IMG/VR virus record: IMGVR_UViG_3300032174_000006
Span: 1-62,842 of that record
Reading direction: 5' to 3' (one strand)
DNA: 62,842 nucleotides
Origin: a virus
Lineage: Duplodnaviria > Caudoviricetes
Shown here: one piece after another, positions 22,043 to 53,851 of the stretch
Position numbering within the stretch: the first letter of the stretch is position 1
Layout: each line of letters starts with the position of its first letter
Program-made: the position numbers and the translations under genes
Notes under the pieces: model-generated
What the model was told of the DNA's origin: nothing
What the model saw: the letters and a program-made list of their open reading frames with translations, nothing else
Databases searched by the model: none

Positions 22043-22043
22043 C

Positions 22044-28177: not shown

Positions 28178-29872
28178 CTAATGACTGATCGAATAGCCGA
28201 CACAGGTGACGCTCGCCACGGACGCTAGGGATATCGTAAAGCTAGTGCTCGCGGAGCGCGTCGTGACTACCGGATTTGTGGCTCCGGTGTTGCACGTGGG
28301 ACTCGACGGTAATCCGGTATTATCATCGGTCTGCCAAACGCTGATTACGCTTCCGGTGTTAACAGCGATGCTGTTGACTGTATAAGTGGTCTGCGATGCG
28401 GGTATGGCGATCACTCCAGAAGCCGCCGCCGCGCACGCTGCCGGCGAGGCCGTCCCAGACGCTCCTCCAAGTAAGCAGGGGGTGAAGGAATTGAACGACG
28501 GACTGCTAACCAAACTTCCGCCGGTTCTGGTGATTTGTCCGTTGGTCCCCACGAGTTTATTTTGGCAGGTGTCGTAGAGCGTGCCACCGGAAAGCAGAAT
28601 AGCGACCGCGCTCACATTCCACGAATTCTCAATGTCCGAATTACAGAGATACGTGGTGCCGTTCGAGGTCAGCGTACCACCCTGCACGGCTGGGGCGGTT
28701 CCTCCGGGGATTTGTGTCATCAGATGATCTGCGTAGAGCGTGCCGTTATTTACGATGGCTCCCGTCGTTCCACTGCCGCCGCCTATCGTCGTGCCATTGG
28801 CGACGAATACGCCGCCCGAGTCGATCAGCAGTCCGGGGGTCGAAGAGATGTGATAGCCGCCGGTGTCCACCATGTAGCCACCGGAAAGTACGTGGAGTTC
28901 TGATCCCTCAACGCCGCTCCCGGTCATCGTCGAGCAGCAGCCCGTTACACTCATCCCCACGAAGCCGGTTTGCTGAATCTGGAGTTCCTTGGCCGTCGTC
29001 CACTGCGCAGCGTGCCACCCGATAAGGTTTGTAGCATTCGCGCTCGCCATCCACTCAAACACCGAAACGTTGTCGATGATTTCGCCGAACGCATCGTAGC
29101 CGGAGAAAACCGCCGTTGAGACGGCTGGGTTGATAAGTCCGTTTGCCGTCTGCTGGTACAAGCCATTCCATGAAAAATTGGAGTATTGATTCTTCAGGGT
29201 AATCGGAGGTACCACACCAAAGAACATGCAAACGTGTTGGCCATCGAATAGGCAGGTCGTGGTGTCGAAATCCGGCATCGGGTGAATAAAGGTAGAAAAT
29301 TGCCCACATCCGTTCACAACAGGCCCAAAAACTAATTGCGTTCTAACCGCCGTGCCGATCCCCTTATTGATGAACGTCCCGGCACAGGGCATCTGAAAGA
29401 TTCCACCACCGCCATTGACGAACGCATTCCACGCCGCCTGAAACGCCGCCGTGTCATCGTGGCCCCAGGCGACCATGCTGCTTACACCTGAATTCAGTGT
29501 GCAGTTGTTGCTGATGGTTATATTCGTGGCCGAATTTACCGTCAGGATGGTGCTCTTGGGACAGGCTAGGCCGCTTGCTTGCGTGGTGGCAAACACGATC
29601 TTGCCAACATCTGCTGAAGTGAAGACGCAAGCAATGTCTGAGGCGGAACAACTGACGGTGGGGCTGCCGATTGAAAAAGACGCGGTATAGGAAAACTTCG
29701 CGTCCCACTTCATTCCGTAATTCAAAGCATAGAAAACATTCCCATTTTGAAATGGAATCCCCGGTGTGTTGGGAGCTAAACCACCTCCGCCCGAGCCGCC
29801 GCCAACGTTCGACTGGGATCTAGCTACAGTAGCCACTAGCAGAAAAAGAAAAAGACCGGCCCATGAACGCAT
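28178..29872 (-). CDS. beta-helix (pectate-lyase-like) tailspike-like protein with N-terminal signal peptide
   Basis: MRSWAGLFLFLLVATVARS; HDDTAAFQAAW..GGG...P motif; G/N/T-rich repeats; paired Cys. Confidence 0.7.
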   Translation of the reverse strand: MRSWAGLFLFLLVATVARSQSNVGGGSGGGGLAPNTPGIPFQNGNVFYALNYGMKWDAKFSYTASFSIGSPTVSCSASDIACVFTSADVGKIVFATTQASGLACPKSTILTVNSATNITISNNCTLNSGVSSMVAWGHDDTAAFQAAWNAFVNGGGGIFQMPCAGTFINKGIGTAVRTQLVFGPVVNGCGQFSTFIHPMPDFDTTTCLFDGQHVCMFFGVVPPITLKNQYSNFSWNGLYQQTANGLINPAVSTAVFSGYDAFGEIIDNVSVFEWMASANATNLIGWHAAQWTTAKELQIQQTGFVGMSVTGCCSTMTGSGVEGSELHVLSGGYMVDTGGYHISSTPGLLIDSGGVFVANGTTIGGGSGTTGAIVNNGTLYADHLMTQIPGGTAPAVQGGTLTSNGTTYLCNSDIENSWNVSAVAILLSGGTLYDTCQNKLVGTNGQITRTGGSLVSSPSFNSFTPCLLGGASGTASPAACAAAASGVIAIPASQTTYTVNSIAVNTGSVISVWQTDDNTGLPSSPTCNTGATNPVVTTRSASTSFTISLASVASVTCVGYSISH

Positions 29873-29880
29873 TGTACCTC

Positions 29881-30312
29881 TCACTGGATAACCGCTGTGA
29901 CCTGCATCCCGTCCCCTGCTGTATCCGCGTCGATAAAATACTCATACAGGTTGAACACGTTGCGATTCAGCGCCGCGCTGCCGAGGGTAAACGTCTGCCC
30001 TGGGGATAGCGCCACGACAATCCCGCCCGTGTCGGAGGTGCCGCTGATTGGCTTCCTCACTATATACACGAGCTTGTTCGTCGTGTTCGCGCCGAGCATG
30101 CTTCCGCTCGCCTTGTAGGACTGGAAGATGATCTGCTGCGCCCGGCTCGTGTATTCATCCGCGCCCGCTGTCCCAGGAGTCGGCGTCTCCGGAGCGTTCA
30201 CGTTTGTAGAGTCCACGAGGGACATGATGCTCACTGGGATTCCGGGAGTGACCACCGCAATCTGCCCCAGCGGCCATATCGGCCCCTGCTTGTCCTTGAA
30301 TACTTGCGCCAT
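29881..30312 (-). CDS. putative structural protein
   Basis: GGAGG RBS, beta-rich, inside the tail operon. Confidence 0.6.
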   Translation of the reverse strand: MAQVFKDKQGPIWPLGQIAVVTPGIPVSIMSLVDSTNVNAPETPTPGTAGADEYTSRAQQIIFQSYKASGSMLGANTTNKLVYIVRKPISGTSDTGGIVVALSPGQTFTLGSAALNRNVFNLYEYFIDADTAGDGMQVTAVIQ

Positions 30313-30339: not shown

Positions 30340-30648
30340 CTAGCTGAACTCGAAATGACCCGATGCTTTGACAAATTTGAGCGTGGCGCCATTCGCAAGT
30401 GTGTTTACATCTACCGGCGCAACATACAATCCCGCTATCTTAGTATTCGCAGGCCCATTTGAAGTTTCCGTCGCGCCAGCTTTCACCTTGGATTGCAACT
30501 CCGCATGACTCTTCTGCAACTCCGTATGTGCATCCTGCAACGAATACAGTTGATCGAGCACCTGCTTCAGCGCGCGCTGCGTCGTGTGTGGGTCCTTGAG
30601 CTGATCCGCCTGCGGGTACCAACGATTCTGCTTAGAGGGTTGACTCAC
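30340..30648 (-). CDS. putative structural protein
   Basis: short coiled coil, follows the nozzle gene. Confidence 0.55.
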   Translation of the reverse strand: MSQPSKQNRWYPQADQLKDPHTTQRALKQVLDQLYSLQDAHTELQKSHAELQSKVKAGATETSNGPANTKIAGLYVAPVDVNTLANGATLKFVKASGHFEFS

Positions 30649-33600
30649 GGTTGTTCGTACCTCCGAAATTCCGGCTGATTAAATACGGTGCGGTGCGTCC
30701 CCACGCCCCTACGCGAATTTCACTATCGTCGAGGAAAATCTGAAATGGATTCGCGCTGTTCGCGGTGAAATTGAACAGTTGCCCCTTGTTCGCGCTGACT
30801 ACGAATAACGTTTTCTGATACGCGCCGCCGGTCGAGGGAAGGGTGATCGGCGCGGGGGATTGGCCATCGTACGATTGAATCGTCAGCGTGACCGCCGACG
30901 CCGCCACATACGCTAGCACCACCTCGCGAATATGCCCGTACCCGGACATCCCAAACGACGCGCCGAACGTCCTCCACGCAAGCATCCTCGCTGGCTGGAT
31001 CGCGAAGCTCGGCTGCCAGAGGTATAGTTTCGTCGGCCCGGACTGCACGCTGAAGTCGTCTGCCCATGCGGTGAACAGTCCCATGAAATCGCTGACCACG
31101 GTCCCGCTGTTCGGCACGACCGCGACCGGATATCTCGTACGCGTGTTGCTGGAAACGAACGTTGTCGCCCCGAACACCGCCGCCCCGAGCGACATCGGCG
31201 TGAACGCAACTCCCAGCCTCGCCGCCGGAGTGAGGTCCACGAAGAAATCCCCCCATTGCTTCGGCGCGCGCACGTCCCCGCCGTCCCATTCGTTCGTCGC
31301 GAGAGTGCAGGGGATGGGAGTCGTGGCGCTGCCGAACGGATTGGCGAAGTCGTTGGTATTCTCCCGCTGCACGCAGCCGAACGTCGCGAAGCTGCCGAAT
31401 CCCACCACCGCCGACGCCGCGAATAACGTCTCTGGATTCGTCTGCGTCGGAATCTGCTCCACGTGGCAGCCGGCGGTGATGCCAGACGGATACACGTCGT
31501 AGCACCACGCCATCCGCTGAACGTTCAGCGTGAGACAGCGGTACACGGCGTTTGTATCCTGATAAATAAAGTAGAGATATCCGAGGGAATAGAACAATCT
31601 GAACTGAAACACACGGTTGTAATCCGGCGCGGCGATGGTCACGCCGTTGTAGATGTAATCCACGCCTTGGCTTCCCTCGTGCGGGAAGAGTTCATATAAA
31701 TCCGCGTCGGTGAGCGATCCCTGTGTGGAGGAATAAATCCCGTCCTTCGCGACCCAGTAGATATTCTGCCCGTCGTTGCAATGCGCGAACGGCGCGGCGA
31801 TGCCTCTCGTGAATGGCTGCTGCACGATCGCGTACCGCTGCGCGGCGTTTCCCTGCTGCGGATATAACGCCCACCACCGTTCCGGCGACGCGACGAAGGA
31901 TAATCCATCCAGCGTCTCGCCTCCGACAAGCGGCTCCGACGGCGGGGTGATCTCTAAATTGTACGTGTCCGGCGCGGCGTCCGGCGTGTTGTTCTTGCTG
32001 AACGACACCGTCCCCGGCCGGAACGGGTCCCCGCACGCGAACACGGTCCCGGTCGCGTCCGGCCCCCACATATACGGAAGCCGCTGCGCCGCGATGAACG
32101 GCTCCTGGATGATGTACGCGACGTTCGCTCCCGCGCCAGCGTTCTCCACGAATTGCAGGAGATAATTCGTCCCGGAAATCAACGTCGGCCGTGCCCATAG
32201 CGTGTACACGTTCAATCCGCCGAGTTGGATCAACGTGCCGGGGAGATAGCGGGTGATATCCGTGTCCATGGAAGAGACCACCGCGACCGTGCCGTTCACA
32301 ATCGACGCCACGCCGAAATTCGGGACATCCACGCTCGGCCATGGCTCGAAGTTATCAAAGTCCAGCGCCTCCCCGGCCTGCGCGGCGGCGTCGTCAAAAT
32401 TGTCGATGAACGTCGGGCTGCCGGTCGGCGTCGAGCCGATGAATCTCCATTGTGTGACCGCGCCGCCGTATCGGAAGATATCCCACGTGTCGATCTGTGG
32501 ATCGTACGCGGCGGATGGGAGATACACCGTTACCTGCCCGCGGCGGGGGTTGACGCCATATCGCGACGCTGGGGAGGGATTCCCGATGACTCCGGTATTC
32601 CGCGCCCGTGGCCGCACACGATATAGTAAGGGTGCGCCGATATCCCCGACGTCCGGCTGATACCCCCCGAACACGAATGGCAAATCCGTCGCCACGTTGA
32701 TCGTCCCGCTCGCGTTCCATAGAAATTGTATCTTCGTGAGCGTTTGAAGCGACTTCGTCTGATCGTTCCCCACCCGCGTAAGCGCACTAATCGGGAACAC
32801 TACCTGCGTCCACTGTCCGCTGCCGGGGAGCAGCTGCGTGCCGCTGGTCGTGTCGATGAATCCGGCCTGCGCGCTGATGGCCGCCGTCTCCGCGTCAATC
32901 CCTGCGCGCTGGGACGCCGTCTGCGATGTGGCAAGCTGCGTCGCGGAGTTCGCCACCGCCGCCGCGATATCCGACGGGCGGATGGTGTAATAGTAGAAAT
33001 TCTGCGTGAAGCTCGCGTCGCCGACGTCGAGGAGGAATTTCAATTCCGTGAGATTCGCGAGGGTGTCGATTTTAATCCCCAGCGAGATGTAATCCTCCTC
33101 CTGAAACGACGCGCCGGAAAGGTTGAACGGATTCGCGGGGACGGTCACGCTGGTCATCGTGCCGATTCCGGTGGTCACTTGGTACGTGGTATCCGGGTCG
33201 GTGATCGCTTGGCCCGCGACCGGAGGCGTCGCCACCCCGCCGCTCGGCAGACTGTAAAACACCTGCACCGTCGCGCCGTCGATCGTGAATCCGCGAACAT
33301 GCGTGCCGAAATTCACCGCCGCGACTGTGACGCCAAAGTTCGCCGCATTGACCTGCGCCGGAGTCCAAGTGGTGCCCCAGAGGTCTATATTAGAGCCATA
33401 AGTAACCGGGTGTATGCCGCTATTGAGGGAGGAATGGTCCGGTCCGAATTGTAATCCCCCCTTCAGCGCAAACACATTCCCGTCGCCGATGTCAGTGTCC
33501 GCCCTCGTGCGCCAGTTAACAGTGAACGCGATCCCTAGAATAGTCGCGGCGGCTGGGACGGCTAATCCGAATTGCGTGATGTTCAGATTATCGCTTATGA

Positions 33601-34735
33601 AATCCGCTCCCGTCACCACGACGAAGCTGGAGAATCCCGGCGTCCATGTGGGTCCGCCGCCGCCCGCGTCCACCGCCGATACCGCCGTCCCAGTCGCAGA
33701 TTGCGTAACCGGCGTCGCGGAGATGACGGAGATTGCGGGGACAGTGGTCAGCGCATCGGCGGTCGTGTGATTCGCCGTGGTGGAAGTCTCAATAGAAATC
33801 CCGCCGTTCGGCCCGGCGCTGACGCTCCACACGTAACAAATCTCCGCGCCGATGACGATCATCGTTCCCCGGCGGAGGGTGGACAAAAGTGCGTTCTGGA
33901 AGATCGATCCGCCGCCCTCGCTGGCGAGTCCCGCCGGCACGATCACGCATCGCCCCGTGGCGCCGGAGAAGTAATAGATGGACTGAATGGTCAGGGAATT
34001 CGGCAGCGCCGCGAACACGTCCATGACCATGAACTGCACCGCGTTGATGAGCACCGTCTGGAGTTTCTGATACGCGGCGGCGGTCCCAACCTGCACTGTC
34101 CAGATCGCCGCGCCGGTGGGATCCTGTAACACTACCCCCGCCGTGTCGCTGACCCGATTCGATGTCCCCGGCGCGCCCGCTGTCCCGCCTTGTGTGTATC
34201 CCGGCGCGCCGATTAGATTAATGTAATTCTCCTGCGGCGCGGCGTCCGGAGCGGATTGCGGCTCGGCGATTCCCACGTTGTTCACGGTTACGGTATTCGC
34301 GAGGCTTGGAGCGGAGAATTTCTTATAATCCCCACCGTTCGCGATATACATCCACGGTTGCGTAGAGGCGTTCGGACGGAAGGGGATAAGCGCCGCGCCG
34401 TTCGCGCCGACTCCCCCGGCCAGCGTGCCGACGTTCACCCCCGTGTCCAGCCACACCTTCCCGGCGGCGTCGTACGCCAGCGTGCGAGGCTGATTGCTAG
34501 TGGCAAGCGCCGCGTACGTTCGCATGTCGGTGATGGGGAAGAGCGCGCCGGATGGGCTGGCGGTGAATGACGCTTGCGCGCCGGGGCGGGATTGAATCGT
34601 GCCATCGGTGTAGCCGCGAACGTTGATCGCGATGGGATATTTTCCGGGAGGAAGGGTATCCGGGCGGCCTTTCGTCTTCATCCCGAGGAACTGGAAGCGG
34701 AATCCCTCGTTTGGCCGATTGAACTCGTCGCCCAT
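30632..34735 (-). CDS. tail nozzle / stabilisation (tubular B-like) protein
   Basis: 1367 aa, beta-propeller-like repeats, follows the adaptor; GMKT..DTLPPG..AINVR N-terminus. Confidence 0.65.
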   Translation of the reverse strand: MGDEFNRPNEGFRFQFLGMKTKGRPDTLPPGKYPIAINVRGYTDGTIQSRPGAQASFTASPSGALFPITDMRTYAALATSNQPRTLAYDAAGKVWLDTGVNVGTLAGGVGANGAALIPFRPNASTQPWMYIANGGDYKKFSAPSLANTVTVNNVGIAEPQSAPDAAPQENYINLIGAPGYTQGGTAGAPGTSNRVSDTAGVVLQDPTGAAIWTVQVGTAAAYQKLQTVLINAVQFMVMDVFAALPNSLTIQSIYYFSGATGRCVIVPAGLASEGGGSIFQNALLSTLRRGTMIVIGAEICYVWSVSAGPNGGISIETSTTANHTTADALTTVPAISVISATPVTQSATGTAVSAVDAGGGGPTWTPGFSSFVVVTGADFISDNLNITQFGLAVPAAATILGIAFTVNWRTRADTDIGDGNVFALKGGLQFGPDHSSLNSGIHPVTYGSNIDLWGTTWTPAQVNAANFGVTVAAVNFGTHVRGFTIDGATVQVFYSLPSGGVATPPVAGQAITDPDTTYQVTTGIGTMTSVTVPANPFNLSGASFQEEDYISLGIKIDTLANLTELKFLLDVGDASFTQNFYYYTIRPSDIAAAVANSATQLATSQTASQRAGIDAETAAISAQAGFIDTTSGTQLLPGSGQWTQVVFPISALTRVGNDQTKSLQTLTKIQFLWNASGTINVATDLPFVFGGYQPDVGDIGAPLLYRVRPRARNTGVIGNPSPASRYGVNPRRGQVTVYLPSAAYDPQIDTWDIFRYGGAVTQWRFIGSTPTGSPTFIDNFDDAAAQAGEALDFDNFEPWPSVDVPNFGVASIVNGTVAVVSSMDTDITRYLPGTLIQLGGLNVYTLWARPTLISGTNYLLQFVENAGAGANVAYIIQEPFIAAQRLPYMWGPDATGTVFACGDPFRPGTVSFSKNNTPDAAPDTYNLEITPPSEPLVGGETLDGLSFVASPERWWALYPQQGNAAQRYAIVQQPFTRGIAAPFAHCNDGQNIYWVAKDGIYSSTQGSLTDADLYELFPHEGSQGVDYIYNGVTIAAPDYNRVFQFRLFYSLGYLYFIYQDTNAVYRCLTLNVQRMAWCYDVYPSGITAGCHVEQIPTQTNPETLFAASAVVGFGSFATFGCVQRENTNDFANPFGSATTPIPCTLATNEWDGGDVRAPKQWGDFFVDLTPAARLGVAFTPMSLGAAVFGATTFVSSNTRTRYPVAVVPNSGTVVSDFMGLFTAWADDFSVQSGPTKLYLWQPSFAIQPARMLAWRTFGASFGMSGYGHIREVVLAYVAASAVTLTIQSYDGQSPAPITLPSTGGAYQKTLFVVSANKGQLFNFTANSANPFQIFLDDSEIRVGAWGRTAPYLISRNFGGTNNRESTL

Positions 34736-36069
34736 TACTCAGTCACCTCGGAATCCATAAGCGGCGCGAGATCCTTCTCTCGCTGCGACAAATCCGCCAT
34801 GATGGTTTGATACTCGCCGAGTTCGCGCAGCTTGGAGTTGTACATCGCGGCCACTTTGAGGAAGCGTTGGAACAGGGGCATCGTACGATTGAACTCCTCG
34901 CCCCCTTGTTTCCAAGCCGCAATGTGTTGGGCATAATCTAGCATCACGTCGAGAATATCCCTTGGCACTTGCACGAAATCCGCGTCCAGAACCGGAATCG
35001 GCGCATTCTCGACCACCGTCGCGGTCAGCGTGTACGCTCCCCCGTCCGCGATTGGCGCGAGGGCGAGCTTGTTTAATCCCGCGTGGAGGATTGTCTGGGG
35101 CGCTCCCGGCGCGGCACCCTGCCATCCCGTGTTATACGTATCCGCGCCGCGCACGGAATCAATCTGAATCGGCACGTTGTTCACCCGCATGGCGAGAAGC
35201 GCGGGGGCGGCGGACAGCGCGGCGAGCCCTAGCCGATACCGCGACTCGCAGTATTGCGCGCGTGGGATATCCTTCGCGTTGGATTCCTTGTTGAGAAGAT
35301 TCGCGAGCGCGCCCCATTTCACCACATGCGTCCAGTCATCAGGGATGGGGATGGTGGATGGCGTGCCGACGGTGAGCGTGCCACCCGCTTCGATCGTCAG
35401 GAGGTCGTAATTCCCCGCGTACGCAGGCGGCACGTCCGTGTCGAAGCTAATCGGCGGCTGGGCGGATAGCAAATACGCGAACGGTGTGCCGGCCGGGGCG
35501 GTCGTATACCCTGAATTGAACGCCTGCTCCGCCCAGGTATCCTCCGGCCACATGGTAGATGCGGATTGCGTGGGGAAGAGTGTGGACGGGACGTATGCCA
35601 TCCGCCGGACGTCGATAACCATGTCGGGGAGTTGGATGCGGCCCGCGACGGCGGGGATCAATCGTTCAGTGATCGTGCATCCGGTGATGCTGAGTGTCTC
35701 GTCCCGCTGCCGCGCGACCGCGTTCAGCACGTCATCGGCGGTGAACTGGAGGGATACGCCCGTCCAGGGATTCCACGCGACGGCTTCGAGCAGGTGATAT
35801 TGGATAATCGTGTAGAGATTCGTGTCGAGGACGTTCAATGACCGGAGAGTATTAGTGAGTGTGGTGATGTCGTACCATGTCTGCCCGGCGACGGCGGGGA
35901 ACGTGAAATCCCCTCGCCAGAACGCTGTCAGCGCATTCCACGTTCGCAACGCTTCGGTAATATATAAATTTAATTCCGCCGGGGACCAGAACGTCTGCGT
36001 GGGATCATACAGGCGATTGGCGAGTTCCTGCCGCACAGTGCCGAGCGTTGTGTAGGAGTATGTCGCCAT
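34735..36069 (-). CDS. head-tail adaptor (tubular A-like) protein
   Basis: TLGTVRQEL..RL.D...WS.AELN.YI.EA; IPDDW...V..GA. Confidence 0.65.
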   Translation of the reverse strand: MATYSYTTLGTVRQELANRLYDPTQTFWSPAELNLYITEALRTWNALTAFWRGDFTFPAVAGQTWYDITTLTNTLRSLNVLDTNLYTIIQYHLLEAVAWNPWTGVSLQFTADDVLNAVARQRDETLSITGCTITERLIPAVAGRIQLPDMVIDVRRMAYVPSTLFPTQSASTMWPEDTWAEQAFNSGYTTAPAGTPFAYLLSAQPPISFDTDVPPAYAGNYDLLTIEAGGTLTVGTPSTIPIPDDWTHVVKWGALANLLNKESNAKDIPRAQYCESRYRLGLAALSAAPALLAMRVNNVPIQIDSVRGADTYNTGWQGAAPGAPQTILHAGLNKLALAPIADGGAYTLTATVVENAPIPVLDADFVQVPRDILDVMLDYAQHIAAWKQGGEEFNRTMPLFQRFLKVAAMYNSKLRELGEYQTIMADLSQREKDLAPLMDSEVTE

Positions 36070-36694: not shown

Positions 36695-39028
36695 CTACAT
36701 AGGAAAGCAACTCAGCGACAAAATATCGCTATCCGTCATGGCGTGAGTGCCCATGACGTCGGTGTAATTCTGAAACGTGGCGGATGATACGGTAGATACG
36801 GTCTGGAGCACGGTCGCCTGATTGGTATTCTTCGTCGTGAGATTCGTCGCGGTGCAATTCCATCCGGTCTTCGCGACGGGCAGGCCGATGACGCCAGTGC
36901 CTGTGTTGCTCGTCCCCACGTTGATGCGAAACGCGGTCGTGCCGTTTGGATTCGCCACAATCGCCGCGCCCGTGCCGAAGCCGGAGGATATCGTCGGCGC
37001 GTTCAGGGATAGATTCGCCTGCCACACACCGAAGATACGGGTAAGAAACGCCCCTCCGCCTCCTGCCGCTACGACTCCCTGCGTACAATCCGAACAGAAT
37101 AATTGCGATCCGCTTCCGGCGATCGGCAGCGTTGCGAACGTGTATCCGACCGAATCGCTGCGCTGCACGATTACATCGTTCGGGCTTCCGCCAGAGTCGA
37201 AGGTCGCCACCGGATCGCCTTGATTATTCTCGTAATAGTTGACGAGGGTGTGGGTATCCACCCGCGAGATACAGAAGTGGATATGCAGGCAGGTATTGTT
37301 AATGAAACGATTGCCGCTTCCGTTCGTTGCGATGCCTGCCGTGTTATTGAAGAAATATGCCGCGTCCACGGAACTCGTGATGGTATCGTTCACGAAATTT
37401 TCCGAGACGATGTTGTCAAGAGTATGCTGGGCCGCGACGGATGTCAGACACACGCCATAGGTCGCCCCGGTCTCGGTGCCCGCCAAAACGATAGAGTTCT
37501 TGGAAATCTTGGCCGAAATGGTTTCACCTTTTATATTGATGGCGCAGAATCCGGAAGACGCGGTGGTGGTTAAGGTGATCCAGTTGCTTTCGACGGTTAG
37601 CACAACTGCGGTGGCCATCTGCATGCCGTCATTGTTGCCAAAGCCCATGATATTGTTAGCGTAAGTTCCTGCTCCTATCACCCCCGGTCCGTTCGCGCCG
37701 CCGCCGAAGATGGAATTGTTGGTGATGAGCGCACCGAGCGCGGTCTTGAGCGCCGTCCCTCCATTGGAATGAGAAATTAAATTCCCGGTCATGACCAATG
37801 AGTTGCCGCCAATGGTGGATCCATCCACAAGAATATGAGTGCCGGAATCGGTGATATAGTTGTCGTTAAACGTCGGCTGGCCGGTGATGACGATGCCCGT
37901 TCCGCTTGCGGTGCCGTCCCCGGCGATGTGATTCTCGGTGATGTATTCTAATCCGGAAATCTCCATCGCGTGCGTGCCCCAGTTTTCAATGTCATTGTGC
38001 TGGATGTACACCCATAAGCCCGCCGCGTTCTTGATTGCATCCCCGGCTTCGTTGAGGATCACGTTGTTTTCCGCGATGGTGTTGTTGAATAGCACAAGGT
38101 CGTTGCTGGGATTGATTACGATTCCGTTTCCTGTGAAGGACGCTTTCACGCCCTCGAAGTGGAGATATTTAATAACGTTGTTCGCTCCGTTCGTCTGGAC
38201 CTGGTCGATATTAGCGGCTTTGGTGAAGGTGGTGATGCTGCCGGGGCAGCCGACGAGGGACGCGCTGGAATTGTTGAGATTGATATTCGCGGTCTGGGAG
38301 ACGGACTGGCCGCAGAAGGTGAATACGGTCGCTTTCGTGGTGGTGACGGCGGTGGAGAGTGTTTGCGCGCCGGTCAGATTATCGCCCCGGCAGATTCCAC
38401 CAGCGGCCGGCAGTGCGGCATCACATGCGTTCATCTTCGCGCCGAGGTTCGCACCCGCGATCCCAGCCATGTCCAGCACCACGGTCCCGCCGGAGATTGT
38501 GGTCGCGGCGGAGAAGTAGGTCGTGTCGCCCGCCGCGCCGGATACCGTGGCGGTGCTGCAAGTCGGGCAGGAGATCACGCCAGTGGTGGTGATCGGGCTG
38601 GGCGTGACGACGATCGGTGAAGTGGCGGTGAAACTGGTCACCGTGCCGCTGCCCCCGCCGCCTGCGCTAGTGAGGATGAACACGTCGGAATAAGTGACCG
38701 GGCCGGGGAGCCCGCCGCCGGTCATGGTGATGTCGTACTCCCCGTTCGCCGCGTAGAATATCCACCGCCCGTTGGAGTTCGCGGTGAAGGGATTGGACAG
38801 GGGAGTGGAGGAGCCGGTGGAGAAGATCGTCGCCGCACCGCCGCCGTGAACGCTAACGCTGACCGTGCAGGAGGGGAAGGAGCCCTGTACCGTGTTGGTC
38901 GAGGATAGTCCGGAGGTGACGACAACCGTCGCGCCTGCCTCGCACCACCCCTGCGCGTTCGCGAGCTGCGCACGGGCCGGGAGCGCGGAGAGTAGAAGCA
39001 GGGGAAGCAGGTATAGAAACCGTTTCAT
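36695..39028 (-). CDS. beta-helix tailspike/fibre-like protein with N-terminal signal peptide
   Basis: ATGA overlap fixes the start at MKRFLYLLPLLLLSALPARA|Q; spike-like N-domain (LSNPFTANSNG.W.FYA..G.YDI), GGGGSGTVTS linker, parallel beta-helix N/I repeats. Confidence 0.75.
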   Translation of the reverse strand: MKRFLYLLPLLLLSALPARAQLANAQGWCEAGATVVVTSGLSSTNTVQGSFPSCTVSVSVHGGGAATIFSTGSSTPLSNPFTANSNGRWIFYAANGEYDITMTGGGLPGPVTYSDVFILTSAGGGGSGTVTSFTATSPIVVTPSPITTTGVISCPTCSTATVSGAAGDTTYFSAATTISGGTVVLDMAGIAGANLGAKMNACDAALPAAGGICRGDNLTGAQTLSTAVTTTKATVFTFCGQSVSQTANINLNNSSASLVGCPGSITTFTKAANIDQVQTNGANNVIKYLHFEGVKASFTGNGIVINPSNDLVLFNNTIAENNVILNEAGDAIKNAAGLWVYIQHNDIENWGTHAMEISGLEYITENHIAGDGTASGTGIVITGQPTFNDNYITDSGTHILVDGSTIGGNSLVMTGNLISHSNGGTALKTALGALITNNSIFGGGANGPGVIGAGTYANNIMGFGNNDGMQMATAVVLTVESNWITLTTTASSGFCAINIKGETISAKISKNSIVLAGTETGATYGVCLTSVAAQHTLDNIVSENFVNDTITSSVDAAYFFNNTAGIATNGSGNRFINNTCLHIHFCISRVDTHTLVNYYENNQGDPVATFDSGGSPNDVIVQRSDSVGYTFATLPIAGSGSQLFCSDCTQGVVAAGGGGAFLTRIFGVWQANLSLNAPTISSGFGTGAAIVANPNGTTAFRINVGTSNTGTGVIGLPVAKTGWNCTATNLTTKNTNQATVLQTVSTVSSATFQNYTDVMGTHAMTDSDILSLSCFPM

Positions 39029-39999
39029 TTCACCCATCCTCGGGACTGGACTTCTCCCATGATGGAGTCTACACTGCTTCGCCCGTAAATCATTGGACAA
39101 TATGACCCGGATTCCAGAATCGCAGGGGGACACCACGCGTGCGACATCTCCTCCTCGAAGGATAGGAATCCCGACCGGGAGATGGAATCGCCACGCGGGC
39201 GCCACCACATCGCGGTGGGGACGTTGAGATAGGTGGAAATGATCCCCACGCCGGCTTGATACGAGATTAGAAATTTAGAATTCTTCGTCACGGAGAAGAG
39301 TTCCCCGATGGTGGTCCGGCCGATGAGGTCGATCCAGTGGGAGGAGGTGCCGTTCAGCCGCGGCGCGAGCATGTGGGTGTAGTAATCGTGATCGTATTCC
39401 GCGCCGACGACGACGATGGGCAGGCCGAATTGCTTGAATATCCGCTCCCCGAGTTCCACCCATTCCGCAGGCTTCCATAACATGTTGCGATTATGCCCTT
39501 CGATGGTGTTGCCATGTAGCGGACCGGGATAGAACACCGCGAACGGGCCGAGTTTGGACCGCACCATGGCACCGTACGCGAGTTCTTTCGAGGTCAGGCG
39601 GAAGTGGGAGAATATTCCCCAGTTGATGTCATAGTGCGGTAGCCATTTCTCCAGCCGGATTCCGCGTTCGAGCGGGGCGTTGGGGATCAGCACGGTATAA
39701 TGCTCACCCTTAAATATATAGTCTCCATCTTCGATGTAATCCCAGTATCCGCCGGGAGTGAAAGGCGGCTTGTCCGCGCCGGAATTGTTCAAGAGGCCGT
39801 AATTCAGCCGCATGTCCACGGACCGGACGAACTCGAATCGACGGAGAAAATCCAGCGCGCGGTCTTGCAGCATATTGCGCTCGGAACAGGTGAGGAAGAC
39901 GTCGATCGGCTCGCCGGGGGCGAGTTTATCCCGGATGGCTTGGATTTTATGCAGCGCCCACACGCTGTCGCCGATTCCCTGCGGGAGTAAGAATTTCAT
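39025..39999 (-). CDS. GT9-like (heptosyltransferase-fold) glycosyltransferase
   Basis: PQGIGD..W, IVVVG, IDLIGRTTIGEL, FLISYQAG. Confidence 0.75.
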   Translation of the reverse strand: MKFLLPQGIGDSVWALHKIQAIRDKLAPGEPIDVFLTCSERNMLQDRALDFLRRFEFVRSVDMRLNYGLLNNSGADKPPFTPGGYWDYIEDGDYIFKGEHYTVLIPNAPLERGIRLEKWLPHYDINWGIFSHFRLTSKELAYGAMVRSKLGPFAVFYPGPLHGNTIEGHNRNMLWKPAEWVELGERIFKQFGLPIVVVGAEYDHDYYTHMLAPRLNGTSSHWIDLIGRTTIGELFSVTKNSKFLISYQAGVGIISTYLNVPTAMWWRPRGDSISRSGFLSFEEEMSHAWCPPAILESGSYCPMIYGRSSVDSIMGEVQSRGWVK

Positions 40000-40571
40000 T
40001 CGTTTCTCCTGTGATCCGTACGGATGAGAATATTCCCCGTCCCGTCCGGATAGTACGCCCAATCGACGCTTCCGCGATTGAGATTGTGCAGCGCGTTGAA
40101 AATCCCCCGGCAGACTTCCGTATCCTGCGCGTCATCGCATAATATCCATTTCGCGCCAGCGTTCCACGCGAGGGTGACATCGTGGGTGACATATTCCGCC
40201 GCGTGATTCCCGTCGATATGCGCGAGGTCGTACCATCGGCCGGGGAGTTCTGGGAGGGTGAGACTGTCCGCAACGATGATCTCAGAATGATAGCCGTGCT
40301 CGCCGAGGAGATCGGATACGAATTTCGACGGACGGACGGTGAACTTTCTCCCGTATTCGTAATCGTTGTCGATTCCGGTGTAGGTACAGCCGAGCGGGGA
40401 AACTTCGAGAAAAGCCAGCGCGGCCAGTCCCTCGCCGATGCCGATTTCGCAGATGGAATTCGGCTGAATCGCGGCGGCGATGGAGCGTTTGAACGAGACG
40501 TATTTCGCGGAGTCGAACGCGCGCGGCTCACGGAACGGGCGGAGAAGGGAATCTGCGACGCTAAACGGCAT
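39996..40571 (-). CDS. class I SAM-dependent methyltransferase
   Basis: ICEIGIGEG, YTGID, DLAHIDGNH, ILCDD. Confidence 0.85.
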   Translation of the reverse strand: MPFSVADSLLRPFREPRAFDSAKYVSFKRSIAAAIQPNSICEIGIGEGLAALAFLEVSPLGCTYTGIDNDYEYGRKFTVRPSKFVSDLLGEHGYHSEIIVADSLTLPELPGRWYDLAHIDGNHAAEYVTHDVTLAWNAGAKWILCDDAQDTEVCRGIFNALHNLNRGSVDWAYYPDGTGNILIRTDHRRNE

Positions 40572-41103
40572 GGATCACCATCAGCTTGCTCCAAGGATCA
40601 CGTTCGATCTTGAAATATTCGATGTGGATGTCGTAGGGGAGATGGGGCGTGATGCCGCGCGGCTCCAGCACGTCCTCGATCACGTAGATGCCTCCAGGGG
40701 ACAGCAAAGGGACGAACGTTTTCGCGGATTCAATTTGATGATGAGATTCATGCGATCCGTCGTCGATCATGAAGTCGATTTTGTTACCGATGCGCGCACT
40801 GGCATCGAACAGCGATCCCGAACTTGCTTGATCGCAAGGGTAGGAGTCAATCCGCTCTTCGTAAATCAGCTTCTTCTCGTCACAGTCCAGACCGTAGATC
40901 ATCGCGAGGGGGAAGTAATCCCGCCACATGCGAAGCGATGCGCCGGTGTCGATGCCGATTTCCACAACCTTGCGGATTGACTCCTCGCGACCGGCGAACA
41001 GGGAGTGGTAATAATGCGTGTATCCATGGCCGAGAGGTTCCGGTCGCTTATCTGTGCCGTATTTCTCCGCCAGAGCGCATAGAGGCGTATAAGTCACTTC
41101 CAT
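40561..41103 (-). CDS. SAM-dependent (sugar O-)methyltransferase
   Basis: KYGTDK..HGY, VEIGIDTGAS, IDDGSH, GGIYVIED. Confidence 0.85.
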   Translation of the reverse strand: MEVTYTPLCALAEKYGTDKRPEPLGHGYTHYYHSLFAGREESIRKVVEIGIDTGASLRMWRDYFPLAMIYGLDCDEKKLIYEERIDSYPCDQASSGSLFDASARIGNKIDFMIDDGSHESHHQIESAKTFVPLLSPGGIYVIEDVLEPRGITPHLPYDIHIEYFKIERDPWSKLMVIHAV

Positions 41104-41666
41104 ATGACTCCAATGCCTCCGCCGGAGATTCTCCCGTCTGGTGAGGTTCCCATGCCCTGCCACGCCTGCGCGGAGGCGAGGTCCCGGCCGATGATCTCCA
41201 CGGAGGGGTGGCGGAAGGCGATATCGTTCCAGATGCGGACGATATTCGGGATGAGGATATCATGGAATCCCACGAGCTTCTGCGCGACGGGGTACCACAG
41301 GTCGAAGTCCTTGCGCGGCGCGTTCCCGTCGTGGTCTGCGTCAATGAATACGACATCCGGGTATCCGCCGAGAACGTCTATCACCCGGCGGAAGGTGTCG
41401 ATGTCGTAGCTCGACCCGCGGATGTAATGTACGCCTTCTGTCGGGACCCCGTATTGCGGATTGTTGATGTCCACCGCGACGACGGACGGGATGCCGGCGG
41501 CGAGCATATACCCTGCGTGACCCGTGCCTAGTTCGACGTAGGATTTCGCGCCGGCCGTGAGACAGATGGACACCCAGGAGAGAAATTCCGGCTTGCGCTG
41601 CCCGAGCCGCGCGGTATCAAACTCGGGAAGTGAGGAAGATGGTCGCGCGCCGGTTGTCGTGTGCAT
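41094..41666 (-). CDS. class I SAM-dependent methyltransferase
   Basis: YVELGTG, VAVD, DVVFIDADH, VGFHD; GAGGTG RBS before ATG 41666. Confidence 0.85.
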   Translation of the reverse strand: MHTTTGARPSSSLPEFDTARLGQRKPEFLSWVSICLTAGAKSYVELGTGHAGYMLAAGIPSVVAVDINNPQYGVPTEGVHYIRGSSYDIDTFRRVIDVLGGYPDVVFIDADHDGNAPRKDFDLWYPVAQKLVGFHDILIPNIVRIWNDIAFRHPSVEIIGRDLASAQAWQGMGTSPDGRISGGGIGVIWK

Positions 41667-42213
41667 ATGCCACCTCGGAGGAGATTAATTTGTGCCCCGC
41701 CGCAACGAGTGTTTCCGCGAAGAGGCGTTCGGATACCCAGAGATTATTGCCGAATGAGGGGGAGCCGTCGTTGAACGTCTCGCCGGAGGTTGTTTGCATG
41801 TCGAATTGCGCGGTCTCGCCGAGGGAGAGGAATTTCGGGAATAGTTCCAGCCAGTTTTCGAGGTCGAAATGTTTCAGGAAAGCGTGCGCGCAGACGAGGT
41901 CATAGCACAGGCAGTTATTGGACAGAGTACGGACGTCCATCTGCTCGAATTTCAGTGTGGGATTGCGGCGCCTCGCGTAGGCAAGCGCCTCCGGATTCGC
42001 GTCGATGCCCATATACTCCGCATGGGGAAACTGCGCTGCCAGCATGCCTGCGAAGATGCCAGTGCCGCAGCCGAGTTCGAGGATCGTATAAGGCGTGAGG
42101 TGCGAGATCAGGGACGCAAGATGCTGCTTCTCATGGATCAAACGAATCCAGGTGTCATCCTCCCGCGCCAGCACCTCCCCGCGCAGGACTTCGCTCACAT
42201 CAGGGTATTTCAA
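41617..42213 (-). CDS. class I SAM-dependent methyltransferase
   Basis: ILELGCGTG, YMGID, YDLV. Confidence 0.88.
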   Translation of the reverse strand: MKYPDVSEVLRGEVLAREDDTWIRLIHEKQHLASLISHLTPYTILELGCGTGIFAGMLAAQFPHAEYMGIDANPEALAYARRRNPTLKFEQMDVRTLSNNCLCYDLVCAHAFLKHFDLENWLELFPKFLSLGETAQFDMQTTSGETFNDGSPSFGNNLWVSERLFAETLVAAGHKLISSEVAYAHDNRRATIFLTSRV

Positions 42214-43106
42214 TATCCACCTCCGTTCGGCAGCCCGCGCAATACAGCCGCCGGATCGGTACCGTATTTGTGGATGAACGATTGAAGATCATGTCCCCAG
42301 ATGCCCACCGCCGGATCGCCGAACGCGGTAGATTGATTGTGCAGGTGAACGTAGGGGATATTCGGGACAGCCAGCACGGGCGGGTAGCCGAGACGTGCGG
42401 TAAGGACCGGATACTCCATATCGTAGAAGATTCCGTCGTGCTCGCCGAAGCCGCCGATCTCCTCCCAGATGTGAATGGGAATGACGAATCCGGACGGTCC
42501 GAGCCGCGCGATGGAGATGATTCGGTCGGTGACGAAATATTTCACGAACCAATCAGTGACAGTCGTGCCATCTTCGGAGCCGGGGGAGCCGAAGTAGATG
42601 GGAGACACGCCGCCGGGGAGGAGGATTCGCCACGTGGACTCGGATTCAAGATCGCGCTGGTCCCATTCCGCCGGGGAGCGTTCCCAGATGGATGAATTCC
42701 CCGTGCGGACAAGAGCTTCCATCGCGGACAATGTAATTCCCGCCGCAGGGGAGGATTCTGCATACGCGAGCCATTTGGAGAGGTCGCCGGAGTTCTCAGC
42801 CAGTGGGGAGAAGATCGTGTCATCGTGAAGGCAGCACACATGGGAATGGCCGAGCTGCTGCATCCAGCGGATCGCCTCGTTGAAGCAGCCGTTGATCCAT
42901 CCGGTTGAGTAGGTATGGAGAACTTTCACGTTCGGCTGCGACTCGAAATATCCTTCGGGGACTTGCGCGCGGTTCCCCGGCCATACTTTTGACGAGGTGG
43001 CGAACGCGATATGCACGGGGAGGGTAGGCTCCATCCGGCGGAGAGAGCGTAATGCGCGGACCATTTTGTTCCCGCCTGTGGAGACGAATACGACGCCGAC
43101 GCTCAT
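42210..43106 (-). CDS. GT-A fold (GT2-like) glycosyltransferase
   Basis: CLHDD motif, IGGF.E, YDME, VHLH. Confidence 0.7.
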   Translation of the reverse strand: MSVGVVFVSTGGNKMVRALRSLRRMEPTLPVHIAFATSSKVWPGNRAQVPEGYFESQPNVKVLHTYSTGWINGCFNEAIRWMQQLGHSHVCCLHDDTIFSPLAENSGDLSKWLAYAESSPAAGITLSAMEALVRTGNSSIWERSPAEWDQRDLESESTWRILLPGGVSPIYFGSPGSEDGTTVTDWFVKYFVTDRIISIARLGPSGFVIPIHIWEEIGGFGEHDGIFYDMEYPVLTARLGYPPVLAVPNIPYVHLHNQSTAFGDPAVGIWGHDLQSFIHKYGTDPAAVLRGLPNGGGY

Positions 43107-44272
43107 GCGGACCTCGCGAGTTCCGGACTATACCACGTGAAGAATCTACCTTTGTAAGCGGTGCGGTATTTATGCGCGATGGCTTGGCTGAAGTTCCAGG
43201 CGAGGATCATCGTCGCGTCGGGTTGCTCAGCCAGCCAGTTCGCCACCGGGACGACTTGAATGCCCGTGCCGGGGATGAATTTCCCCTGTTTCGTCGGCGT
43301 GTCGTCCGCGATGATGGACATTTGGGCGTTCGTGATCCCGCAATAATTGAGAAATATCGTCGCTTTCGCAGCAGCGCCGAATCCCGCGACTACGCGATCC
43401 GCTAGCATCTCGCGGGTGGCGAGTTTACACTTTTCCACGCGGGATGAGAAATCGGAATAATACCCTGGGGAGTGGATGAAGAATGATTCCTGCGAGAGGA
43501 TTAGGCTGGTGGAATGGCCACGCGAGCCGATCTTCGACGCCCAGATGCGGAGGGAGCCGCCGTGCGTGTCGATCTTTTCGGTGCGGATGATGGTCATCCC
43601 GTGGCGGGTGAAGAGACGATCCAGCGCGGTCAGGGAGAATTGATAAACGTGTTCGTGATAGCACTGGTCGAACGCCGTCTTCGCGAGGAGTTCATAGAGA
43701 TATGGGACTTCGATAATCACTGTACCGTCCGGCTTCAGCGCGAGGGAAAGGCCGAGGACGAAATCGTTCAGGTCCGGGACGTGTGCAAGAACGTTGTTAG
43801 CGTGGATGATATCCGCTTGCGGGCCGAGACCCTTCGCCATCGCGGCGGAGAAGAATCCCCGCACGGTGGGGATGTCCAGTTTCGCGGCGGCGTCGGCGGC
43901 ACGCTCGGACGGGTCGATGCCGAGCACGGGGATCGGGCCGTAGTGCTGGAGGAGATAGCCGTCGTTTGAGCCGATCTCCATCACGAGGGAACGATTATCG
44001 AGGGGGATGCGCTTGCGGACGGATTCGACTAGGGATTTCGCGTGGGCCACCATCGGAGAGGAGTACGAGGTGAGGTAGGAATAGTCGGTGAACATTTCCT
44101 CGGGAGGGACGGTTTCAGTGAGCTGCACGAGCGAGCAGGTCTCACATAGTGCGAGTTCCAACGGATACTTTTTATATGATTCATCGGGGGAGTTCAGGAG
44201 AGAATTCGCCAGCGGCATTTCGCCGAGGGAGAAGATTGGATGAGTCCTGCTGCCGCAGCTTCGGCAATTCAT
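43103..44272 (-). CDS. NDP-hexose C-methyltransferase
   Basis: Zn site CRSC..CETC, EIGSNDG, HEH, HGGS, FGAAAK, DD.P.KQGKF.PG, LAWN. Confidence 0.9.
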   Translation of the reverse strand: MNCRSCGSRTHPIFSLGEMPLANSLLNSPDESYKKYPLELALCETCSLVQLTETVPPEEMFTDYSYLTSYSSPMVAHAKSLVESVRKRIPLDNRSLVMEIGSNDGYLLQHYGPIPVLGIDPSERAADAAAKLDIPTVRGFFSAAMAKGLGPQADIIHANNVLAHVPDLNDFVLGLSLALKPDGTVIIEVPYLYELLAKTAFDQCYHEHVYQFSLTALDRLFTRHGMTIIRTEKIDTHGGSLRIWASKIGSRGHSTSLILSQESFFIHSPGYYSDFSSRVEKCKLATREMLADRVVAGFGAAAKATIFLNYCGITNAQMSIIADDTPTKQGKFIPGTGIQVVPVANWLAEQPDATMILAWNFSQAIAHKYRTAYKGRFFTWYSPELARSA

Positions 44273-45442: not shown

Positions 45443-45934
45443 ATGCCTGCACATCGAGATTGGCTAGTTCGCTTTCTTGAAAATATTTCAGTAAACGATC
45501 AAACCGGATGCTGGGACTGGATTGGATCATGCCAGCCCTCTGGCTACGGCCAGTTAAATCTCCAGCGCGAAGATGGAGCAGCCCGTCCTGAACTTGCCCA
45601 TCGAATTTCCTACCGCGTATTCCGTGGCCCCATCCCGACCAACATCAACCGGCCTACAATAGACCATCTTTGTAGAAATCGGAAGTGCGTAAATCCTGAG
45701 CATCTAGAAACCGTCAGCAATCGTGAAAATATTCTAAGAGGAACAGCCCCATCGGCGATGTACGCCAGAAGAACGCATTGTAATTACGGCCACGAATATA
45801 CCGAAAATAATTTAGCTCGACGCAGTAATCGTAGAGTACGAGAATGCAAAATCTGCAAGAGCAACTCGCAAAAGAAGTATAAACGTAACAAAAAGGCTAA
45901 AGCTGTGCGTAGGGACCGGCGTATCCGCTTATAG
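45443..45934 (+). CDS. HNH homing endonuclease (antisense to the late operon)
   Basis: CWDWIG..GYG..HR..DHLCRNRKCVNPEH; THCNYGHEY..CKIC. Confidence 0.9.
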   Translation: MPAHRDWLVRFLENISVNDQTGCWDWIGSCQPSGYGQLNLQREDGAARPELAHRISYRVFRGPIPTNINRPTIDHLCRNRKCVNPEHLETVSNRENILRGTAPSAMYARRTHCNYGHEYTENNLARRSNRRVRECKICKSNSQKKYKRNKKAKAVRRDRRIRL

Positions 45935-46898
45935 TGTTATAAAAACCCAACCCGCGGCCTGCCAGTCCCGGCATCCTCGCCGTGATCCAATTATCGACGG
46001 TATCTTTATCAACTTGACGGTCCTTTTGCAAGAGGCTTCTGTAATCCGCCATGGTCGCGCCGCGAAGATATTTGAAATCCGGACCGGAGGAGCGCGGGGA
46101 CATGTCTTTGTTCGCTTCCGCCCATTCGTACGCGAGGTCCTTCGCGCGGGCGAGAACGGTTTCTTCGCGGAGTTGCGGGGGGATCGTGTCGGAAGGGGAG
46201 ACGAGGTCGGCGCCGTTGCGGACGCCGTAGCACTGGTAGGTGAAGAGTTGGATCGGCTGGCCCCAGAGTTCGAATAGCGGGAATTGAAACGTCGCGGATT
46301 GGTTCACGGTGCTGGCCCCGCGTAGATCAAGTCCGATCGGCACGACGCGCGTGGGAAATTGATACCAAGTTCGTTGCGGGTCCATCGCGTCGATCTCCGC
46401 GCGGGTAGTGACGAGGTCGAGGTCGATGAACATTTGAGGATTGCGGACGCTGATCCAGGTGCGGAAGTCTTTGAATGAGGCGGCGTAGTAGAGCTGATAA
46501 ATTTGAAATGCTTGCCCCGCGCCGCCGGGATCGCCGAACACGCGGTCGAGTGTCGCGGCGCCGGTGACGGAATTGTACTGGATGATGGAGTAGATTCCCC
46601 CGACGCCGATACGGAATTGACGTTGGGTGATTAAGGAGTATGGATTCGCGACGACAGACGCGTTGATCGCCGCGATTGCGGTTGCGTCGAAGGTGATGGA
46701 TGCGAAACCTTGTGTGGTGGTCACTGTGCCGGTATTGCACAGCGGCGGCGTGATCCACGAGGATTCGAATAAGTTGAACGACCAGAGATTCGCGAGGCGG
46801 ATGGAGCGGTAGGCGCGATTAATCAGCGTGGGGGCGTAGGATATAGGGAGCTTCGGGACTGATCCACGAAGCTCCGTTTGCATCGAGATGAAGGACAT
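45897..46898 (-). CDS. head-tail adaptor/connector-like protein
   Basis: LINRAY..I....WSF N-terminus, L....DTIP motif; follows capsid genes. Confidence 0.6.
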   Translation of the reverse strand: MSFISMQTELRGSVPKLPISYAPTLINRAYRSIRLANLWSFNLFESSWITPPLCNTGTVTTTQGFASITFDATAIAAINASVVANPYSLITQRQFRIGVGGIYSIIQYNSVTGAATLDRVFGDPGGAGQAFQIYQLYYAASFKDFRTWISVRNPQMFIDLDLVTTRAEIDAMDPQRTWYQFPTRVVPIGLDLRGASTVNQSATFQFPLFELWGQPIQLFTYQCYGVRNGADLVSPSDTIPPQLREETVLARAKDLAYEWAEANKDMSPRSSGPDFKYLRGATMADYRSLLQKDRQVDKDTVDNWITARMPGLAGRGLGFYNTISGYAGPYAQL

Positions 46899-53301: not shown

Positions 53302-53851
53302 AAGACTTCCAAGAACGATGCGTACGTACCGCACTGACAGTTTGCTCAGAAATATTCAGTCTTCGAGCTAAGACTAAATTCGATTCGTTGGATACCCTAA
53401 TCATCGTAGCATTTTCCATTGTCAGTTTAGACCGGATTCCCCGATGTGCATTCATCGCAGGAGTAACGATCTCTAAGTGACTGGGATTTATACATGCCCG
53501 ATTTCGGCAAAGATGATCTAAGGGAAATCCTTTCGGAATAGGCCCAAAAGTAAGCTCAAAGGCCACGCGATGAGCTAACCGTACATTGGAAAGTCGTATG
53601 TTACAGATTCCGTATCCGGCGTGATTTAGGCAGCCAGTCCATTCCATACAATCTGGCCATCCCGACAAAGGAATCGGCCGCGTACGCGACCAGAAGCGGG
53701 TAAAACTTCTAAGAGGATGATGTCCATTTCCATGACTAGGCAAATAATAAACAGGCTGCCCCCTAACGTGGCCTAGCTTGCTATTTGTGTGCTTTGCTAT
53801 GGGAGCTTGTCCCCCACATCCGCACTGACACAGTCCGCTTTTATTGGACAA
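53291..53851 (-). CDS. HNH homing endonuclease
   Basis: CQCGCG, CMEWTG..GYG..HR..DHLCRNRACINPSH, C-terminal HTH-like segment. Confidence 0.88.
   Translation of the reverse strand: MSNKSGLCQCGCGGQAPIAKHTNSKLGHVRGQPVYYLPSHGNGHHPLRSFTRFWSRTRPIPLSGWPDCMEWTGCLNHAGYGICNIRLSNVRLAHRVAFELTFGPIPKGFPLDHLCRNRACINPSHLEIVTPAMNAHRGIRSKLTMENATMIRVSNESNLVLARRLNISEQTVSAVRTHRSWKSYGN

Follow-up and report, generated by a model that had tools for sequence, protein, structure and literature searches.

Predicted signal peptide and paired cysteines of a tailspike-like protein from a Tunturi-1-like podovirus

The window analysed (the whole stretch of IMG/VR record IMGVR_UViG_3300032174_000006) is the complete genome of a virus, 62,842 bases long with direct repeats at its termini, encoding a P22/SU10-type portal and an HNH endonuclease. 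Analysis of its gene P0001, of the product, tailspike-like protein 1 (TSP1), and of their relatives points to a protein with an N-terminal Sec-type leader and paired cysteines, which very probably folds outside the cytoplasm, the compartment in which the rest of the particle is built. Coordinates of the features are collected in Table 1.

Gene and predicted fold of TSP1

The ATG codon at 39028 shares the letters ATGA with the TGA stop of the preceding open reading frame (ORF). In the preliminary description this overlap was taken to fix the start of TSP1; the overlap is present, but it is insufficient alone, because a further in-frame ATG lies 9 nucleotides (nt) upstream, at 39037. Translation from the latter codon, which has no Shine-Dalgarno motif of its own, would give MGEMKRF..., and the leader is identical from either codon. 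Relatives of TSP1 start with MKR, MKK or MRR.

From ATG 39028 the protein begins with MKRFLYLLPLLLLSALPARA, followed by QLANAQGWCE, and the predicted mature N-terminus is Gln21. All 16 cysteines (residues 29, 54, 154, 157, 202, 213, 239, 261, 495, 527, 580, 586, 645, 648, 725 and 774) are located in the mature part, and the leader contains none. The GGGGSGTVTS linker and the cysteine motifs CPTC, ACD...IC, TCLHIHFC and FCSDC, listed in the preliminary description, were all found in the translation.

No match to TSP1 was detected in Pfam, PHROGs or NCBIfam, and the comparison with PDB sequences gave 0 matches at E up to 1. The AlphaFold2 model, obtained from a 70-row alignment, has a mean predicted local distance difference test score (pLDDT) of 81.6 and is represented by a helix (residues 2–13), a beta-sandwich (23–118), a disordered stretch (122–179) and a beta-helix from residue 184 to approximately 650 with pLDDT >90. 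Five of the eight cysteine pairs, counted in sequence order, belong to the beta-helix. In the Foldseek search the body of TSP1 matched the right-handed beta-helix enzymes GH87, AlgE4 and PL6 lyases and the tailspikes CBA120 TSP3, Sf6, P22 and HK620 (E 2e-4 to 1e-2; 1e-3 to 1e-2 for the matches of the helix to podovirus beta-helix tailspikes), as well as phage tail proteins of the ‘pectate lyase superfamily’, with E down to 1e-10. The likeness to a phage spike suggested earlier, namely, an N-terminal attachment-like domain, a linker and a beta-helix, is borne out by the model and by these matches, and TSP1 is probably a spike that binds or cuts polysaccharide.

The N-terminal domain (N-domain) modelled by itself has a pLDDT of 90. 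Its top rows in Foldseek are tail-complex chains of the cyanophages Pam1 and Pan3 (E 0.06–0.1). An all-against-all structural search gave transthyretin-like and carboxypeptidase-regulatory-like sandwiches with Z 6.8–7.8 (3e8v, 5aq0, 1qmu), the Pam1 chain 7eeq_A with Z 7.7 and the N-domains of the P22 and Sf6 spikes with Z 6.6–6.8; the likeness to the spike N-termini of P22, Sf6, Pam1 and Pan3 spans Z 6.3–7.7, and all Z values of the N-domain lie below the level that separates a shared arrangement from kinship. These modelled fold matches are consistent with an anchor domain, short of proof. Complex prediction of the N-domain with the 333- and 444-amino acid (aa) proteins of the window gave a score of 0.00 against a mark of 0.32, which speaks neither for nor against binding.

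Table 1. Features of the TSP1 gene and of other genes of the window
Feature	Position	Strand	Basis and remarks
TSP1 tailspike-like gene (P0001)	36695..39028	-	777 aa + stop; ORF, translation, relatives, structure model
GAGGA Shine-Dalgarno-like motif	39037..39041	-	8 nt before ATG 39028; from sequence
TSP1 leader, residues 1–20	38969..39028	-	K2/R3 n-region, Leu-rich h-region, A-R-A at -3 to -1; predicted helix 2–13
N-terminal beta-sandwich, residues 21–120, with Cys29/Cys54 pair	38669..38968	-	Proposed particle-anchor domain; profile, model
Gly/Ser/Thr-rich linker, residues 121–180, including GGGGSGTVTS and CPTC	38489..38668	-	pLDDT <50 over 122–179; sequence
Right-handed parallel beta-helix, residues ~181–655	37064..38488	-	pLDDT >90; Foldseek matches
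C-terminal region, residues 656–777, with Cys725 and Cys774	36698..37063	-	Poorly modelled, pLDDT 34–60
Tailspike-like protein 2 (TSP2), 568 aa, leader-bearing, 16 Cys all past the leader	28178..29884	-	No family match
444-aa conserved tail-module protein, leaderless	34735..36069	-	Candidate docking partner; weak PHROG tail/structural matches; synteny
1367-aa conserved tail-module protein, leaderless	30632..34735	-	Synteny
333-aa conserved protein, leaderless	45897..46898	-	Tunturi 1 homologue gp11 annotated ‘tail protein’
Upstream gene, weakly GT9-like (heptosyltransferase-like)	39025..39999	-	Stop overlaps the TSP1 start
Sugar-modification-like cassette	39025-45408	-	Between head genes and spike
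HNH endonuclease gene	53291-53851	-	Adjoins portal gene
570-aa and 616-aa proteins	23341-26900	-	Zero Cys
322-aa protein	21134-22102	-	Lipobox-like LVAC; viral BACON_2 domain (E 2e-5)
Small membrane-type protein	20164-20502	-	GNGNGNGNG repeat
195-aa protein	19106-19693	-	Lipobox-like MTGC
Cys-rich HNH-like ORF	17863-18342	-	Late-region end
Family A DNA polymerase fusion, 979 aa	14104-17043	+	N-terminal uracil-DNA-glycosylase (UDG)-superfamily domain

Leaders and cysteines among the relatives of TSP1

The protein search with TSP1 gave 92 matches. The beta-helix is shared by about 12 of them (39–46% identity over 56–79% of TSP1), while most of the others match over the first 110–130 residues only (50–87% identity), where the domain is fused to unrelated C-termini of 440–1350 residues. 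A conserved anchor with exchangeable distal parts is the architecture usually seen in particle-bound receptor-binding proteins. The N-domain profile matched 65 of 93 proteins. Viral contigs were scanned with an 18-row alignment, the 70-row alignment being too diverse for searching, and 124 relatives of TSP1 were found, from which 80 loci were kept; a single-protein TSP1 query for related viral loci returned no relative. Scanning of 185,579 species genomes yielded 24 pattern matches, none of which was a relative, so that neither a prophage copy nor a host link was found there.

In 43 of the 80 loci, homologues of the 333-aa, 444-aa or 1367-aa proteins are neighbours of the N-domain gene and share its strand. 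The gene order is represented by two variants. In the first, the genes of the portal, the scaffold-like protein, the major head protein and the 333-aa protein are followed by an optional cassette of sugar genes, the spike, the 444-aa and the 1367-aa proteins; in the second, the same genes from the portal to the 333-aa protein are followed by those of the 444-aa protein, the spike and the 1367-aa protein. The remaining 37 loci are short contigs or belong to more distant phages sharing just the second half of the N-domain.

The start of the domain is intact in 64 protein matches; 55 of these carry a leader of at least 17 residues, and the other nine begin 3–9 residues from the domain. Pooling of the protein matches with the viral loci and removal of identical rows gave 101 distinct N-domains, 85 with a leader and 16 leaderless. 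Conservation of the signal in homologues, named as a check in the preliminary description, is therefore seen in 85 of 101 distinct relatives, although the leader sequences diverge widely and only the signal features are kept. The n-region contains K2 and R3 in TSP1 and two or three Lys/Arg residues before the core in most of the 55 leader-bearing protein matches. A small-x-small site (A-R-A in TSP1) was found in 81 of the 85 leaders, with Ala at position -1 in 65 of these 81 sites, and is located 8–10 residues ahead of the conserved cysteine in 73 of them. The median length of the uncharged stretch is 13.5 residues (range 8–20; 15 or fewer in 67 of the 78 leaders measured), which corresponds to a signal peptide and is shorter than a membrane anchor. 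All sequence features of the cleavable Sec signal that had been described for TSP1 (n-, h- and AxA c-regions) are thus present.

Of the window's 46 minus-strand ORFs with 150 aa or more, the rule used for leader detection picks out four, namely, TSP1, TSP2 and two lipobox proteins. Applied to the core virion ORFs of 40 related loci (15 kb or longer), it gave one positive in 151: portal 0/17, scaffold-like protein 0/10, head protein 0/30, 333-aa protein 0/29, 444-aa protein 0/28, 1367-aa protein 1/32 and 750-aa protein 0/5.

Three other assignments of the leader were rejected. A lipoprotein signal, processed by signal peptidase II, is at variance with the absence of cysteine in or just after the TSP1 leader. 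A Tat signal consists of a twin-arginine motif and a weakly hydrophobic core; in TSP1 a KR n-region precedes a Leu-rich core, and some relatives have MRR without the rest of the motif. For a membrane anchor the uncharged stretch is too short.

The presence of the leader coincides with that of the cysteine pair of the N-domain. Cys29 was found in 55/55 and Cys54 in 52/55 of the leader-bearing protein matches, and Cys29 in 0/9 of the leaderless ones. In the pooled set the first cysteine is present in 84 and both cysteines in 79 of the 85 domains with a leader, while the 16 leaderless domains contain the first cysteine in no case and the second in three. The number of cysteines in the mature part is even in 48 of the 54 full-length relatives that carry a leader (binomial p 3e-9); among those without one, five have an even and four an odd number. 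The cysteine content is 2.1% in TSP1 and 2.8% in TSP2, and 0–0.7% in the window's remaining tail-module proteins. In the tree calculated for the N-domain with the two cysteine columns left out, the leader state changes 11 times. Because the leader is conserved in most relatives and is tied to the cysteine pair and to the even cysteine count, export and oxidative folding of TSP1 are, on these sequence features, highly likely.

Leaderless N-domain spikes occupy the same slot in loci L018, L023, L027, L029, L039 and L045. Two N-domain genes are present in L021, both with a leader, and in L039, both leaderless. Loci with a leader-bearing spike often hold more large Cys-rich ORFs with leaders; among the leaderless loci, none was found in L018, L027, L029, L039 and L045, and one in L023. 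Since sister phages have leaders on all or none of their spikes, the trait may, judging by these sequences, be gained or lost as a property of the whole genome.

Other genes of the window

The gene upstream of TSP1 has weak similarity to heptosyltransferases: the match to TIGR02195 has E 0.0024 and 17 bits against a cut-off of 134.6, the match to RfaF has E 0.45, and PF01075 was found in 14–19% of the members of the gene's Atlas clusters. The label ‘GT9-like’ given to it earlier holds as a likeness, but a weak one, far under the TIGR02195 cut-off. This gene adjoins the spike gene in just three of the 80 loci (L002, L009 and L015) and is absent from most relatives, and a general coupling of the two genes was rejected on that count. 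A heptosyltransferase paired with an exported beta-helix substrate is a known arrangement with which this pair may be compared, weak as the likeness is and rare as the pair is here.

The cassette to which this gene belongs contains two weak GT9-like proteins, one of them with tetratricopeptide (TPR) repeats, a C-methyltransferase that includes a zinc-binding domain, and four other genes resembling S-adenosylmethionine (SAM)-dependent methyltransferases. It is present in some relatives only (L002 and L009/L015), with parts in L003 and L028.

TSP2 has a leader-like N-terminus followed by a Gly-rich stretch and lacks the N-terminal anchor domain. The 322-aa protein, which also has two long proline runs, is, by its sequence, probably an exported lipoprotein. 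In the 195-aa protein the lipobox-like motif is followed by more hydrophobic segments; the gene adjoins that of a 254-aa protein of PHROG 19005 (function unknown), and this neighbourhood may be a lysis region. The 570-aa and 616-aa proteins contain long low-complexity stretches rich in Ala, Lys, Glu and Pro, and their genes are placed where podoviruses keep those of ejected internal proteins.

Export, docking and alternatives

Two cultured podoviruses of about 63 kb, Tunturi 1 and Tunturi 2 (PP887698.1, PP885685.1) of Tunturiibacter psychrotolerans X5P2, belong to the same lineage as the window phage, and their records were the only ones in the phage collection matched by P0001 in tblastn. Identity with the window is 30.7% for the major head protein and 42.7% for the N-domain, and the C-terminal parts differ. 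In Tunturi 1, leaders were found on gp12 (the TSP1 homologue), gp13, gp14 (‘tail spike protein’), gp16 and gp17 (‘virion structural protein’); the genes with leaders lie together in a single block, after which come the lysis genes and then the homologues of the 444-aa and 1367-aa proteins. Tunturi 3 (L084, PP885686.1), a podovirus that infects the same strain and is unrelated to these phages, shows no leader on any of its 15 structural and tail-fibre coding sequences; therefore, the leader trait is not host-imposed, and this explanation was rejected. The tail fibres of Tunturi 3 are conventional, leaderless and Cys-poor.

TSP1 is proposed to be the principal receptor-binding tailspike of a soil podovirus that resembles Tunturi 1 and infects Terriglobia (Acidobacteriota), exported and then docked late on the particle, with a rough probability of 0.55. 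TSP1 would be synthesised with a cleavable Sec signal peptide, translocated as an unfolded preprotein to the host periplasm and cleaved after Ala20; it would fold there with up to eight disulfides, and its N-terminal beta-sandwich would then dock onto capsid–tail particles assembled in the cytoplasm, either when lysis merges the compartments or after release. The preliminary description had suggested an exported, oxidatively folded receptor-binding protein. Export and oxidation are supported by the sequence, while the particle-bound receptor-binding role and the late docking are inferred from the place of the gene in the tail module, from the N-domain with swapped C-termini and from the leaderless versions in sister phages.

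The tailspikes P22 gp9, Sf6 gp14, HK620 and CBA120 TSP3 have, like TSP1, an N-terminal particle-binding domain followed by a right-handed beta-helix. Signal peptides are absent from these tailspikes, which fold in the cytoplasm, and no sequence similarity to them was found in the PDB search. The P22 spike joins the particle after all other parts and can attach to spike-less heads in vitro.

Among virion proteins, Sec leaders are found on pIII and pVIII, the coat proteins of filamentous phages, which assemble at the membrane and are extruded. Unlike filamentous phages, the window phage is tailed, with a portal and a capsid. A case among tailed phages is given by gp085–087 of the Cellulophaga phage phi18:3 (KC821620.1, Pachyviridae), a cultured podovirus of a Gram-negative host from another phylum (Bacteroidota). 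All three proteins have leader-like N-termini and are structural ‘based on experimental MS/MS proteomics analysis’ (tandem mass spectrometry) according to the GenBank note; they contain 0, 1 and 3 cysteines and have no sequence relation to TSP1 by tblastn. Their homologues in phage phi46:3 have leader-like N-termini as well. By analogy, these proteins may serve as a precedent for leader-bearing proteins reaching particles. The adhesive mosaic trimer fibres of Bdellovibrio (PMC10769870) are reported to resemble phage fibres and to leave the cytoplasm, but belong to a predatory bacterium and not to a virus particle. A full-text literature search found no paper describing tailed-phage spikes or fibres that carry signal peptides; the relevant passages of PMC13001222, PMC13452462 and PMC5723332 contain just routine use of SignalP or one NosD-like viral protein with a leader.

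Several points weigh against the proposed route. The leader test is a crude self-made rule, and by its threshold 83 leaders were recognised; P0033, with a cut N-terminus, and L034, with a weakly hydrophobic leader under the threshold, were relabelled by hand to give 85. The leader-bearing domain of L050 lacks both cysteines and five others lack the second. Counts of leaders with cysteines and of even cysteine numbers rest on related, non-independent sequences, and the tree provided three contrasts on supported branches, all in the same direction (sign test p 0.25); this test is underpowered, because three contrasts pointing the same way cannot reach significance. The Z values of 6.6–7.7 between the N-domain and P22, Sf6 and Pam1 are in the range of common beta-sandwich arrangements. 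Lysis genes were looked for in the window, and none could be named. The main text of the Tunturi paper (PMC11924767) contains no proteomics and no mention of ‘signal peptide’, ‘tail fiber’, ‘tailspike’ or ‘mass spectrometry’.

The main alternative, put forward as a secreted depolymerase in the preliminary description and less likely, is that TSP1 is exported and never joins the particle, acting as a free depolymerase or adhesin that is periplasmic, surface-bound or released. Such a protein could strip away host slime or capsule and thereby help progeny to escape, or it could destroy receptors and so block superinfection. The leader and the cysteines fit such a protein equally well, TSP2 carries a leader without the anchor domain, and some relatives, e.g., P0020, pass directly from the leader into the beta-helix. 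Secreted bacterial enzymes resembling tailspikes exist: WceF of Pantoea stewartii (PMC7949094) is reported to be an exported protein with a tailspike-like beta-helix, and its chain 6tgf_E is among the weak matches of the N-domain; it is an enzyme from a slime gene cluster on a bacterial chromosome, neither encoded in a phage tail module nor part of a particle. However, an N-domain with swapped C-termini is typical of particle-bound proteins, the leaderless versions of this domain in the same slot of sister phages are hardly secreted enzymes, and the window contains no other large leaderless candidate for host recognition, the 1367-aa protein excepted. The leader-bearing proteins reported in particles of the Cellulophaga phage also argue for attachment.

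Retention in the cytoplasm is improbable. In this case TSP1 would fold and dock there as other tailspikes do, with its hydrophobic helix serving in assembly or tethering it to the membrane, and oxidation of the cysteines would occur only after release. Known tailed-phage spikes all assemble in the cytoplasm, sister phages use the same domain without a leader, and the tree test of the link between leader and cysteines has little power. Against these points stand the conserved small-x-small site with its constant spacing to the domain in 73 of 81 leaders, an uncharged stretch (median 13.5 residues) too short for a membrane anchor, a leader sequence that is free to diverge while its features stay, the cysteine pair missing from all 16 leaderless forms and the even cysteine number in 48 of 54 leader-bearing relatives. 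That the leader is a chance feature or the artefact of a wrong start codon, as the additional ATG 9 nt upstream and an ORF open up to GTG at 39208 might suggest, is hardly credible: the GAGGA spacing is correct for ATG 39028, a leader is encoded at the same place in 85 of 101 distinct relatives, and it is translated in any case, because every candidate start lies upstream of it.

For the whole group, the odds are about even that all outer host-recognition proteins of Tunturi-1-like podoviruses are exported via Sec, disulfide-bonded in the periplasm and fastened, only at lysis, to spike-less particles built in the cytoplasm. Decoration of the Ser/Thr-rich linker of the spike by the GT9-like and methyltransferase cassette is much less likely. 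Tunturi 1, Tunturi 2 and their host are in culture, so the question is directly testable.

In textbooks, the assembly of tailed phages is wholly cytoplasmic. If the proposed route is true, export followed by docking would bring a further compartment and a late docking step into this scheme and would be an assembly pathway not described before for tailed phages. Expression of such spikes as enzymes, or for host-range engineering, would need an oxidising compartment for folding. The route would also explain how soil phages afford disulfide-stabilised spikes.

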